The notes under the pieces were generated by a model, which worked only from the letters and a program-made list of their open reading frames with translations, did not search any database and was not told the DNA's origin. From contig JAFGEJ010000200.1 of assembly GCA_016931655.1 (NCBI GenBank), positions 6,015 through 70,014 on the forward strand: 64,000 nucleotides of DNA. Direction: 5' to 3'. This DNA is from Phycisphaerae bacterium (GTDB lineage Bacteria > Planctomycetota > Phycisphaerae > SM23-33). Of the stretch, positions 9,025 to 15,196 are shown one piece after another (position 1 is the first letter of the stretch; each line of letters begins with the position of its first letter). A program made the translations under genes and the position numbers.

Positions 9025-9165
9025 TGAGCGACCGGATTTTCTGTCACGACAATACGTCGAGAAAATCCGACACCCCTTGGGGGCAGGCTCCGTTCCTGAG
9101 AGACAGAGAAGATATAGAGGAGGGAAAAAATAAAAAATCTTCTCAGTTCCTCAGTTTCTCTGTGT
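9025..9165. repeat. About 140-bp intergenic repeat, copy 1 of 2 (second copy at 15054..15196)
   Basis: Shared sequence TGAGCGACCGGA(T/C)TTT...GAAAATCCGACACCCCTTGGGGGCAGGCTCCGTTCCTGAGAGACAGAGAAGATATAGA...AAATCTTCTCAGTTCCTCAGTTTCTCTGTGT, near-identical in both copies. Contains a short GAGAAGAT / ATCTTCTC inverted repeat. Confidence 0.8.
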
Positions 9166-9319
9166 AGGATTTTATCCGGCCATGGGGTTTGGGGCGATTA
9201 CGGAATTACCGCCAGAAAAAATGTCATATACAGGAATAGAAAAAGGGCGTCGCGGCCATGGATGCCTGGCGCGACGCCCCGGGCGGACCCTCCGTCCCAA
9301 CTGCACGTGTTCTGCATCC

Positions 9320-9850
9320 CTACGTTTGCCCCATTCCGAGGGACAGAAGAACCGTTTCCTCTTCCCTGGCAGATGGGGGCTTGGGCGGCTTGTCTTCCTT
9401 CTTTTTGGGCGGCGTGTCCGCTTCTTCCAATTCTTCGCTGATGTGCAGCCGCCACTGATTCAGCAGCACCGCCAGTTCGCGGGGTTTCATGCCGTAATTG
9501 TCCGGCAGGTAGTGCACCTGCATCACGCGGTTGCCGTTGAGCATGTAGTACACCCCCAATTGCCCCGTGATTCGCCGATCGGCCCAGAATTTCTGGATGT
9601 CGTCCCAGTGGTAGTGGGAGCTCTTGAACAGGTGGCGGATGGTCAGGGCGTCCTCGTCGAACTGGAGATAGGAAGAGCTGGGCAGCAGCCAGAGCAGGAG
9701 GATCATGACCAGCAGGATGCACGCCACCGTCAGGGGCCAGGCCGAGACGGTATGAAACTCCCGGATCGACCAGAGGCCGAAGGCGACAAACAGGAGGGCG
9801 AAGAGAATCAGGATCCAGGTGTAGGTCTTCTGCGGACGGAGGATTTTCAT
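9320..9850 (-). CDS. Small membrane protein with 2 TM helices and a PH-like C-terminal domain
   Basis: ATG at 9850 preceded by AAGGAG. MKILRPQKTYTWILILFALLFVAFGLW, then a second TM, then a soluble domain and a K/P-rich tail. The longer track ORF start at 10078 was rejected. Confidence 0.55.
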   Translation of the reverse strand: MKILRPQKTYTWILILFALLFVAFGLWSIREFHTVSAWPLTVACILLVMILLLWLLPSSSYLQFDEDALTIRHLFKSSHYHWDDIQKFWADRRITGQLGVYYMLNGNRVMQVHYLPDNYGMKPRELAVLLNQWRLHISEELEEADTPPKKKEDKPPKPPSAREEETVLLSLGMGQT

Positions 9851-10074
9851 AATACGTCTCCTTTGTGTGAGAGGGTCACGTGCAATTTCAGGCGCCCTCG
9901 TGTGTGTATGGCGTGGGCCGGCACATACAAAATACGCGGAGAGCCGTCGCCCCCGTTTCGGAGTCCCCCACGGCGGCTCCCCATAGTCTTTCATAGGATT
10001 TCTCGCCGCCGGGGAGAGGATTTTTGCGAAGTTTTTTTTGAGGGGGAGGCAGATTAATCCGAAATTTTCATTGA

Positions 10075-10148
10075 CCACAGAGACACAGAGAACTCAGAGA
10101 AAATCATAAGAAATTACGTTGTTCTCTGTGACCTCTGTGTCTCTGTGG
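10075..10148. repeat. Long imperfect hairpin of the CACAGAG family, directly downstream of the GH130 gene
   Basis: CCACAGAGACACAGAGAACTCAGAGAA, about 20-nt AT-rich loop, TTCTCTGTGACCTCTGTGTCTCTGTGG. Same architecture as the elements at 14118, 14790 and 35607. Confidence 0.75.
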
Positions 10149-10161
10149 TGAAATATCCGGG

Positions 10162-11115
10162 TTAATGTCTCAGGCAGGCTTCGTCGTCGCATTCGGTGGC
10201 GGAGTCGATCAGTTCCTCCATGGTCGTCAAGGCCACGCAGATGGACGTGTCGGCGGCGCCGTAGTAGATCTTCACCTCGCCGTCGTCCTCGACGATCGCG
10301 CCGCAGGCGAAGCAGACGTTTCCCACGTCCCCCACGCGCTCGTAGTCGGTTCGCGGGCTGAGCAGCGGTTCCAGGCATCGGCCTATGACCTTCGAGGGAT
10401 CGTTCAGGTCGAGCATCACCGCCCCGATGCGGTAGATCGGCCCGGCGGAGGTCATTTTCACGCCGTGATAGATTTCCAGCCAGCCCTTGTCGGTTTTGAT
10501 CGGCGGCGCGGAGGCGCCGATACGATACTGATCCCAGAACCGCGGGCGCGGGCCGAGCACGTAGTCGCTTTTGCCCCAGTGTTTCAGGTCCGGCGAGTAG
10601 GAAATCCAGATCGCCCCCACGCCGTACCCGAAGGGCCGGTCCAGGCGGGCGTACAGGCCGTTGACCTTTTCGGGGAACAGCACGCCGTCCTTGTTGCCCG
10701 GTTCGGAGACGATGGCGATGCGCTCGTAATGGTGGAAGTCCTCGGTCTTTGCCAGAGCGATGTAATGTCCGTATCCGCTTACCGCCGTGTACATGATGTA
10801 GTATTCCCCCTCGATAACGGTCAGACGGGGGTCTTCGATGCCGTTTTCCTCCCACGAGCGCCAGGGTTCCTGACTGGCTGGGAGCATGCAGGGGCTTTTT
10901 TCCATCTCGAAGTGCAAGCCGTCGCCGCTGCGGGCCAGCGTGAAGAAGGAATACCCCTGCTGTCCCTCGATGCGGATGAGCAGATAATACTCGCCGTCCA
11001 CTTTCACGGGCGTTCCGTTGAAAACGGTGTTGCAGCGGAAGGGCACGTCCTGGAGCGTCAGGATCGGGTTGCGTTCCCATCGGTGCAGCCGGTCGGTTCC
11101 GTGTCGAATAATCAT
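10162..11115 (-). CDS. GH130-family glycoside phosphorylase-like protein (beta-mannoside phosphorylase superfamily)
   Basis: 317 aa, no signal peptide, five-bladed beta-propeller GH130/DUF377-like sequence (RNPILT...GEYYLLIRIEG...DPRLTVIEGEYYIMYTA...). Its start overlaps the upstream paralog's stop by 4 nt. Confidence 0.65.
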   Translation of the reverse strand: MIIRHGTDRLHRWERNPILTLQDVPFRCNTVFNGTPVKVDGEYYLLIRIEGQQGYSFFTLARSGDGLHFEMEKSPCMLPASQEPWRSWEENGIEDPRLTVIEGEYYIMYTAVSGYGHYIALAKTEDFHHYERIAIVSEPGNKDGVLFPEKVNGLYARLDRPFGYGVGAIWISYSPDLKHWGKSDYVLGPRPRFWDQYRIGASAPPIKTDKGWLEIYHGVKMTSAGPIYRIGAVMLDLNDPSKVIGRCLEPLLSPRTDYERVGDVGNVCFACGAIVEDDGEVKIYYGAADTSICVALTTMEELIDSATECDDEACLRH

Positions 11116-14350: not shown

Positions 14351-14710
14351 ATGCCGAAATATCGCGTAACCTTCCAGCCGATGGGCAAAACCGTGGAAGC
14401 GGACCCGGCGGCGTATCCCTACGGCGACCACGGCCTGCCCGGAAGCCTGCTGGATATCGCCCTGGCGTTCGGCGTGCCCATCGAACACGCCTGCGGCGGC
14501 GTGGGCGCCTGCGCGACGTGCCACGTGATCGTGACAGCCGGCGAGGAGAATCTCTCCCCACCGAGCGAAGAGGAACTGGACCAGGTGGAACTCGCCCCCG
14601 AAAGTTCGCCCGATTCGCGTCTGGCCTGCCTGGCCGTCGTGCGGGGCGACGTGACGGTGAGAATCCCCGGCTGGAACCGAAACGCCGTTTCAGAAAACGC
14701 CTCCCCGTAA
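14351..14710 (+). CDS. fdx: 2Fe-2S ferredoxin (adrenodoxin/putidaredoxin type)
   Basis: Start at MPKYRVTF (ATG 14351). Cys ligands are ACGGVGACATCH (C-x5-C-x2-C) plus the downstream RLAC. 119 aa. Confidence 0.8.
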   Translation: MPKYRVTFQPMGKTVEADPAAYPYGDHGLPGSLLDIALAFGVPIEHACGGVGACATCHVIVTAGEENLSPPSEEELDQVELAPESSPDSRLACLAVVRGDVTVRIPGWNRNAVSENASP

Positions 14711-14789
14711 AAAACGACGAAAGCACCGCCAAGGCGCTTCCGTCGCCTGGTTTTCCTCGTAATTGCAATTGAGAATTCTAAAAGACCTA

Positions 14790-14863
14790 CCACAGAGACA
14801 CAGAGGTCACAGAGAAAAACATAAAAAATTAGGTCTTTCTCTTTGCTCTCTGTGTCTCTGTGG
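14790..14863. repeat. Long hairpin of the CACAGAG family, in bidirectional-terminator position between fdx (+) and tRNA-Leu (-)
   Basis: CCACAGAGACACAGAGGTCACAGAGAAA, loop, TTTCTCTTTGCTCTCTGTGTCTCTGTGG. Confidence 0.75.
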
Positions 14864-14904
14864 TAAAAATTCCTTTTTTTCAGAGGTCTCAATTCAAAAA
14901 CCAC

Positions 14905-14990
14905 TGCCCGGGACTGGATTTGAACCAGCATGAGGTATAAACCTCACCAGGCCCTCAACCTGGCGCGTCTGCCAATTCCGCCACCCGGGC
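14905..14990 (-). tRNA. tRNA-Leu (anticodon GAG), type II with long variable arm
   Basis: Reverse complement reads GCCCGGGTGGCGGAATTGGCAGACGCGCCAGGTTGAGGGCCTGG-TGAGGTTTATACCTCAT-GCTGGTTCAAATCCAGTCCCGGGCA. Acceptor 7 bp, anticodon loop UUGAGGG, long variable stem-loop, T-loop TTCAAAT. Confidence 0.85.
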
Positions 14991-15053
14991 GGGAATCCCC
15001 GTAGAATAATTCCGCCGGCGTGGTATGTCAATACGCGGCGGGGCGGGAAGACG

Positions 15054-15196
15054 TGAGCGACCGGACTTTCCGGCATAAAGAAAAAAACAGAAAATCCGAC
15101 ACCCCTTGGGGGCAGGCTCCGTTCCTGAGAGACAGAGAAGATATAGATGATGAAAAAAATTAAAAAAATCTTCTCAGTTCCTCAGTTTCTCTGTGT
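15054..15196. repeat. About 140-bp intergenic repeat, copy 2 of 2 (first copy at 9025..9165)
   Basis: Near-identical to 9025..9165, including TGAGCGACCGGA..., GAAAATCCGACACCCCTTGGGGGCAGGCTCCGTTCCTGAGAGACAGAGAAGATATAGA and ...ATCTTCTCAGTTCCTCAGTTTCTCTGTGT. Confidence 0.8.

Follow-up and report, generated by a model that had tools for sequence, protein, structure and literature searches.

Two near-identical intergenic segments lying 6 kb apart in a 64-kb stretch of DNA from a Phycisphaerae (Planctomycetota) metagenome-assembled genome (MAG; contig JAFGEJ010000200.1, GC 60%; the whole stretch is referred to as the window) raise the question of what kind of element they are. The original prediction, made from the sequence alone, had considered small mobile modules, regulatory modules or a conserved small RNA (sRNA). 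We call the two segments copies A and B, and a third, diverged segment found in the window copy C. The analysis favours the mobile alternative, in that A and B (~210 bp each) and C probably represent a lineage-specific, non-coding, non-autonomous palindromic insertion element resembling miniature inverted-repeat transposable elements (MITEs) and REPINs. All three copies have a common architecture, relatives lack the element at the A and C sites, and a 9-nt direct repeat flanks B, which makes mobility the best-supported part of what had been proposed.

Anatomy of copies A and B and identification of copy C

Both copies were confirmed at the positions first noted, A at 9025–9165 and B at 15054–15196, and the 51- and 27-nt blocks that they share each occur exactly twice in the window and in none of 100 dinucleotide-preserving shuffles, bearing out the claim of two near-identical segments. 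On either strand, A and B fold into a small hairpin (CGGAYTTTC...GAAAATCCG) and a long one (CTGAGAGACAGAGAAGAT / ATCTTCTCAGTTCCTCAG) with an AT-rich loop, separated by CGACAC and the 18-nt GC-rich sequence CCCTTGGGGGCAGGCTCC. Aligned segment by segment, the hairpin arms and the 18-nt insert are identical at 81/81 positions, comprising 54/54 over 9061–9114 (right arm, CGACAC, insert and long-hairpin 5′ arm) and 27/27 from the long-hairpin 3′ arm to GTGT, and TGAGCGAC with the small-hairpin left arm is identical at 16/18. The A-rich central tract to which the differences had mainly been assigned is the long-hairpin loop, which indeed varies (21/26 identical, with a 2-nt indel), but so does the small-hairpin loop (9/19 identical). 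Nor is the unit limited to the ~140 bp first described: beyond it lies a right part (9166–9235 vs 15197–15265) identical at 46 of 73 positions (63%), whose alignment score of 22 was attained by none of 2000 shuffles (2.5 ± 1.5). With this right-hand similarity continuing to about 9235/15265, and with a sharp boundary to the left of TGAGCGACC, each unit therefore spans ~210 nt. The right part forms two small helices, GGAT/ATCC in A vs CGCGT/ACGCG in B, and GGCGGTA/TAATCGCC vs GGCGGCA/TGATCGCC, whose three compensatory double changes and zero disruptive ones come from two sequences and carry no statistical weight. The elements are non-coding: no open reading frame (ORF) is conserved between A and B, which indels separate. 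A 9-codon ORF in the right part of A was rejected as a small conserved ORF, the corresponding place in B having no start codon.

The search for more copies that had been suggested was productive, as the A+B profile also matches 35601–35723 on the minus strand (E=5e-7), where we found copy C. Its parts are ordered as in A and B, with TGAACGA, a small hairpin (CGGATT...AAATCCG, 35690–35723), CGACAC, a near-perfect 28-bp long hairpin and GTGTCG, but it has AGA instead of the 18-nt insert and it has no right part. Judged by eye on the alignments, the small-hairpin loops of B and C are ~75% alike and the A loop is a different sequence, so that the difference between A and B in this loop looks like one replacement event in A and not slow drift. 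Because the derived 18-nt insert and identical arms are common to both, A and B descend from one variant, of which C, lying 20–26 kb away in the opposite orientation, is rather likely to be a shorter, older relative.

Empty sites in relatives and flanking repeats

Copy C lies between two divergent genes, encoding a yegS-like kinase and a TPR/RpoA-CTD protein, which are syntenic in three relatives (L169, L170 and L171; 83–88% amino acid identity). When the spacers were aligned, a TTGCCT-N16-TATTAT promoter, the first ~45 nt downstream of it and the ATG were found to be kept in all, and the ~130 nt of C to be confined to the window. With C inserted between the start of the 5′ untranslated region (UTR) and the ATG, a 28-bp hairpin is expected in the yegS-like mRNA, ~15 nt ahead of the start codon. 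The promoter-like motif and the start of the 5′ UTR are conserved across all four genomes (35760–35883 in the window; L169, L170, L171). At the A site, relatives whose alpha/beta-hydrolases are 81–84% identical (L016, L017, L018/L019) retain ~100 nt of upstream sequence before the hydrolase ATG and have no element; their conservation reaches window positions ~9009–9019, that is, 5–15 nt from the left end of A, and the genes further upstream differ. Empty orthologous sites of the MITE type are hence present for C (L169, L170, L171) and for A (L016–L019), and the alignments show that the elements were gained in this lineage by insertion into intergenic DNA, directly for C and through absence from relatives for A.

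The stretch upstream of the hydrolase ATG (8924–9019) is 76–87% conserved among relatives (L016:3413-3498, L017, L018) and includes a hairpin, CCGAAAAAAT..TTTTCGG, and GTTTACTAC; these ~100 nt are probably the promoter and leader of the gene itself. Around B, gene order downstream of murA differs in every relative examined, and the contig of a 91%-identical relative (L001:11267-11547) ends 280 nt after murA in a cluster of a different repeat, ATATACCAGCCCAGGGCGAAGCCCTGGG, with inverted copies.

Copy B is flanked by two occurrences of CGGGAAGAC (Table 1), and its terminal inverted repeats (TGAGCGACC / GGTCGCTTA) are weak, with a local score of 8 (p=0.044). The sequence TGAGCGWCYGGA was found only at A, at B and beside C (35740–35751, in DNA that the relatives also carry), apart from single-mismatch matches resembling chance.

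Kinship with a widespread hairpin family

A relationship with CACAGAG hairpins, also suggested originally, was upheld. The canonical hairpins in the window have arms of the form ACCACAGAG-RCACAGAG-RCACAGAG, and four canonical-type hairpins accompany the three module copies. A covariance model (R1) built from 57 metagenome hairpins only, hence independent of the window and with rough E-values, gave 51.8 bits (E~3e-12) for C, with borderline scores for the hairpins of A (9093–9169; 20.6 bits, E~0.002) and B (15118–15200; 16.5 bits, E~0.02). These scores indicate a real kinship, which for C is firm and for A and B borderline, though consistent.

The canonical hairpins form a very widespread, apparently undescribed family: they have no Rfam family, and no paper with octamer-repeat sequences in a bacterial context was found in the literature searched. 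A two-anchor hairpin pattern matched at least 120 JGI metagenome stretches (L020–L139) from varied habitats (soil, sediment, freshwater), the contigs concerned having a GC of 0.42–0.75 among the matches listed, as well as 26 stretches of IMG/VR viral contigs (L143–L168). A canonical member is also present in a related MAG (L016:5519-5609), and another in the Gemmatirosa kalamazoonensis megaplasmid (L140:1501-1586), where a CCGCAGAG-type hairpin encloses it in its loop. Whole-arm variants of the octamer hairpins exist with CACAAAG or CCGCAGAG units, and co-variation is seen in the three bases next to the fixed pattern (TTC/GAA, TGA/TCA, TTA/TAA, TGC/GCA). Among the matches listed, 44 canonical hairpins lay between called ORFs, 34 of them co-directional, 10 convergent and none divergent (0/44, compared to 36/233 for background spacers), and, measured from the stop codon of the gene that turns its 3′ end towards it, the hairpin begins at a median distance of 13 nt. 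Copies A, B and C do not follow this placement (~7–17 nt after a stop codon, never between divergent genes), as the A hairpin is 165 nt from the nearest stop codon, behind a terminator, and the B hairpin is 77 nt from the murA stop codon. No sense-strand bias was observed in the canonical hairpins, either in folding energy (26 vs 42, p=0.12) or in G.U counts (114 vs 117), and the canonical palindrome therefore looks symmetrical at the DNA level; RNA-level selection on it was rejected for the same lack of strand bias. In three metagenome contigs (L065, L106, L107), canonical copies of one genome share derived arms and differ in their loops, which points to a family property (rapid loop turnover or arm homogenisation) and not to a peculiarity of A and B.

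Searches for further copies and signals

Using blastn and nhmmer, the whole element and its left and right parts were searched against 1.05 Mb of fetched loci, including 98 kb from close relatives. The hairpin part alone matched other hairpins, no homologue of the A/B-specific parts was detected, and the 98 kb from close relatives held one canonical hairpin and no element of the A/B/C type. A plasmid search with the element gave no match, and an exact scan for the 24-mer TTGGGGGCAGGCTCCGTTCCTGAG gave none in genome, metagenome and viral contig collections. Viral contigs likewise contained no match to the 27-mer right arm or to the C-type pattern, and the degenerate GTTCCTGAGANACAGAGAA yielded 11 single matches in unrelated taxa, for a chance estimate of 17. 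In the window, only tRNAs reached the gathering score with Rfam 15; at E<=10, only chance matches to microRNA and small nucleolar RNA hairpin models appeared, far under threshold. Neither scanning nor inspection by eye revealed a sigma-70 or sigma-54 promoter common to A and B, and an intrinsic-terminator scan found no site inside either copy; TTTCTCTGTGT comes after the long hairpin on the plus strand alone, a strand antisense to every gene next to A and B.

Genomic setting

Copy A adjoins an intrinsic-terminator-like hairpin (9240–9285, then TTTTT, minus strand) that ends a transmembrane-protein gene, its other neighbour being the minus-strand hydrolase gene (ATG at 8923). Copy B begins directly past the murA stop codon (15273–15275, minus strand) and ends 23 nt before a TTGACA-17-TATTCT promoter of tRNA-Leu(GAG). 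The MurA, hydrolase and lipid kinase proteins of the window match NCBI MAG proteins at 100% identity. The orientation of the element relative to its neighbouring genes is not consistent: A and B run antisense to the genes beside them, and C is sense, within the 5′ UTR. The proposal of a regulatory module for downstream genes fared poorly: the hydrolase's own conserved ~100-nt upstream region persists in relatives without the element, tRNA-Leu has its own promoter between B and the gene, and C stands the other way round relative to its neighbouring gene than A and B do. Coordinates are collected in Table 1.

Table 1. Positions of the repeat copies, their parts and related hairpins in the window.
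Feature	Positions	Strand	Remarks
Copy A, full unit	9025–9235 (~211 nt)	+	TGAGCGACC, small hairpin, CGACAC, 18-nt insert, long hairpin, T-rich tail, less conserved right part
A, small left hairpin CGGATTTTCT / AGAAAATCCG	9033–9069	+	17-nt loop, unlike those in B and C
A, 18-nt GC-rich insert CCCTTGGGGGCAGGCTCC in 5′ arm	9074–9091	+	copy C has AGA here
A, long hairpin CTGAGAGACAGAGAAGAT / ATCTTCTCAGTTCCTCAG	9096–9154	+	A-rich loop 9114–9136; borderline, distant CACAGAG-octamer family member
A, right part	9166–9235	+	63% identical to B; two small hairpins
Copy B, full unit	15053–15264 (~212 nt)	+	between 9-nt direct repeats; architecture as A
B, small left hairpin CGGACTTTCC / (C)AGAAAATCCG	15062–15098	+	two T>C changes
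B, 18-nt insert	15103–15120	+	identical to A insert CCCTTGGGGGCAGGCTCC
B, long hairpin	15125–15185	+	arms identical to A arms
Direct repeat CGGGAAGAC, left of B	15044–15052		candidate target-site duplication; p=0.0034 for two flanks
Direct repeat CGGGAAGAC, right of B	15265–15273		last base is first base of murA stop codon
Copy C	35607–35735	−	diverged, ~70% identical in hairpin; 5′ UTR of yegS-like lipid kinase gene
H1, canonical CACAGAG-octamer hairpin	10071–10152		12 nt after GH130-like gene stop codon; 72.8 bits, E~4e-18
H2, canonical CACAGAG-octamer hairpin	14786–14867		downstream of tRNA-Leu; 67.5 bits, E~1e-16
CACAAAG / CTTTGTG variant hairpin	14115–14205		all units of both arms changed together; 40.6 bits, E~5e-9

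The genes between A and B are ordinary (two GH130-like, one LolA-like and one VTT/DedA-like), and an island or composite transposon bounded by the two copies was rejected, there being no integrase or transposase, no GC shift and no overlap of the repeat with the tRNA. A tRNA-like or att-site origin of AAATCCGACACCCC was rejected as well, since by eye only the 6-nt AAATCC is common with the T-loop region of tRNA-Leu.

Other repeats and gene-poor segments occur in the window. Between a GH130 gene and the LolA-like gene lies a 157-nt AT-rich element (12192–12348) with perfect 33-nt inverted arms (AAGAGAACACGAATTACGCGAATAAAGACGAAT), likewise made of ~8-nt units and containing ACGAAT. A second palindromic repeat family, TGTCATCCTGAGCGAAG...CTTCGCTCAGGATGACA, has three copies (13210–13320, 24098–24218 and 40623–40753). 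The dnaG–murA spacer (16539–16783) is dense in GC-rich mini-hairpins (GGCCCCAAAGGGGC, GCCGCCCCTTCGGGGC, CCGGGGG...CCCCCGG and CAGCCCTTCGGGCTT); within it, 16573–16638 scores 21 bits with the CACAGAG hairpin model, and CCCCTTCGGGGC is similar to the 18-nt A/B insert, a possible derivative of such a repeat. Further along, two 37-nt inverted repeats (26521–26557 and 26823–26859; 86% complementary, 265 nt apart) sit in a 635-nt stretch without a predicted gene, between PilZ and CBS-domain genes, and 54460–56657 is gene-poor, with gaps of 681 and 1118 nt around a 132-amino-acid ORF without a Pfam hit.

Weighing the explanations

A, B and C are each built round a long AT-rich hairpin, a diverged member of the CACAGAG-octamer family preceded by a small hairpin, with the 18-nt GC-rich insert interrupting the 5′ arm in A and B. 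If they are an insertion element, spread may have been MITE- or REPIN-like, through copying by a transposase or through recombination or repair acting on hairpin DNA, and the mobilising enzyme would presumably be encoded elsewhere in the genome. Identical arms beside diverged loops and right flank could reflect very recent copying with fast loop evolution, or else ectopic gene conversion centred on the hairpin. An effect on the host would be a by-product, the likeliest being that of a barrier or stabilising hairpin in the murA 3′ UTR (B) and the yegS-like 5′ UTR (C). Several observations weigh against this explanation. No transposase, RAYT, integrase or reverse transcriptase was identified among the ~47 predicted proteins of the window, and the copy number rests on three copies within these 64 kb. 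The terminal inverted repeats of A are not significant (p=0.16), C has none, and neither A nor C has a target-site duplication, the longest word common to their flanks being 5 nt (p>0.6). No syntenic relative, and hence no empty site, was found for B, because relatives carry different genes after murA. Moreover, arms identical at 81/81 next to a right flank at 63% are not expected from a single recent transposition of a 210-nt unit, and would also fit purifying selection on a functional core.

That pattern of identity is the main argument for regarding A and B as paralogous structured sRNA genes of ~140–210 nt, most likely on the minus strand and exapted from the hairpin repeat, in which selection keeps the helices and the insert and lets the loops drift, an explanation that we consider unlikely. 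The differences between A and B do fall in loops, and the right-part helices show compensatory double changes without disruptive ones; weak hints come from both T>C changes in the small hairpin of B, which produce G.U pairs on the minus strand only, the plus strand having C.A mismatches instead, and from minus-strand folds that are more stable than plus-strand folds and shuffles (z=−3.7 vs −2.6 for A; z=−2.6 vs −1.9 for B). However, covariation from two sequences is without statistical weight, A and B share no conserved promoter and no minus-strand hairpin-plus-U terminator, in B the element follows the murA stop codon too closely for a promoter to fit in between, and canonical hairpins of the family lack strand bias in RNA stability. 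With, in addition, no Rfam match and no homologue of the A/B-specific parts in the 1.05 Mb of loci, plasmids or viral contigs, nor of the core 24-mer in genome or metagenome collections, the conserved sRNA of the original prediction is left without a hit outside the contig and without a consistent promoter or terminator. Comparably improbable is that the element is not mobile, A and B being remnants of one old local duplication or rearrangement junction whose core was later homogenised by ectopic gene conversion. This would agree with their lying only 6 kb apart in direct orientation, with the mosaic of a 100% identical core and a 63% identical right flank, and with a synteny that breaks exactly at the A and B sites in relatives. 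Against it stands copy C, a clean insertion into a conserved 5′ UTR, distant and oppositely oriented, from which it follows that elements of the A/B/C type arrive at new sites; the 9-nt direct repeat flanking B, flanking genes that are not paralogous and an A–B interval without compositional shift also speak against it. Equally to be weighed is a host cis-element acting as terminator or insulator between tandem minus-strand genes (transmembrane-protein gene to hydrolase, and murA to tRNA-Leu), given that A and B each lie between the 3′ end of one such gene and the promoter of the next, that murA has no other terminator-like hairpin ahead of the tRNA promoter, and that canonical hairpins, among the matches listed, avoid divergent spacers and start close behind stop codons. 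Nonetheless, this is very unlikely: none of the element's hairpins has a U-run behind it on the minus strand, a canonical terminator already lies upstream of A, C sits between divergent genes inside a 5′ UTR, and relatives lack the element at the same genes (hydrolase, yegS-like).

A broader idea, to which we assign a minor but appreciable likelihood, is that A, B and C branched off locally from an undescribed class of DNA palindromes that crosses phyla and has tandem 8-nt arm units (CACAGAGR, CACAAAGR, CCGCAGAG). A dedicated mechanism would install or maintain these at a fixed ~13 nt after stop codons and, in place of chance recency, would also keep the A/B core invariant through templated copying or correction of arms; arms that change as a whole and in concert, the nesting of hairpins and the copies in viral contigs are the features that suggest it. 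As to the insertion element itself, the A/B pair alone is a small genome-specific repeat with no demonstrated function, relevant in Phycisphaerae MAGs mainly to annotation, assembly breaks and synteny analysis. Its main value is as an entry point to a hairpin superfamily abundant in metagenomes and viral contigs, present on a Gemmatimonadota plasmid and placed with striking constancy behind stop codons, which makes the more interesting lead. Should that family rest on a specific enzyme or a 3′-end function, A, B and C would show its diversification via arm insertions, added hairpins and new contexts such as 5′ UTRs.

Comparison with known repeat elements

The term repetitive extragenic palindromic (REP) sequence denotes short (20–40 nt) imperfect palindromes or inverted pairs in extragenic DNA, with a GTAG or CGTC end tetranucleotide and a RAYT association (PMC3733652), and RAYT transposases are the enzymes that move REPs and REPINs (Bertels & Rainey, 2011, PMC3116915; Di Nocera et al., 2013, PMC3733652). 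Like REPINs, A, B and C are extragenic and non-coding, with two inverted arms that form a long hairpin with a variable spacer, and they comprise near-identical copies within the genome, lineage-specific variants and a presence that varies among close relatives. Their arms, however, are not 20–40-nt REPs but ~20–28 nt of tandem 8-nt units (CACAGAGR and derivatives), with the outer stem interrupted in A and B; the GTAG/CGTC end tag is not conserved, the ends being CGACAC and GTGT(C/A)G, with GTAG only in A (9163–9166) and in neither B nor C; and the window has no RAYT gene. A gene for a RAYT (Y1 HUH transposase) flanked by the repeats and a high copy number per genome are further REP hallmarks; the 64 kb hold three module copies and four canonical-type hairpins. 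REP families are usually genus-specific, whereas the canonical octamer hairpins span phyla and, among the matches listed, contigs of widely differing GC (0.42–0.75).

Compared to these CACAGAG-octamer hairpins, A, B and C have a long hairpin that aligns, AT-rich variable loops and arms of CAGAG-type units. They differ in their ends (CGACAC/GTGTCG instead of ACCACAGAG/CTCTGTGGT) and in the extra small hairpin on one side. Moreover, A and B have the 18-nt GC-rich insert that breaks the outer stem and the 70-nt right part, and C sits between divergent genes, where canonical members were never seen (0/44).

MITEs, such as Correia, RUP and ERIC, offer the remaining comparison. In contrast to them, the terminal inverted repeats are weak (p=0.044 for B and p=0.16 for A), a target-site duplication is missing from A and C, no parent insertion sequence with matching ends was found and no transposase is present within the window, and conservation between A and B peaks in the interior and not at the ends. 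Like MITEs, nonetheless, A, B and C are 130–210 bp long, non-coding, intergenic, placed in UTRs and absent from the orthologous sites of relatives, and copy B has a 9-bp flanking direct repeat.

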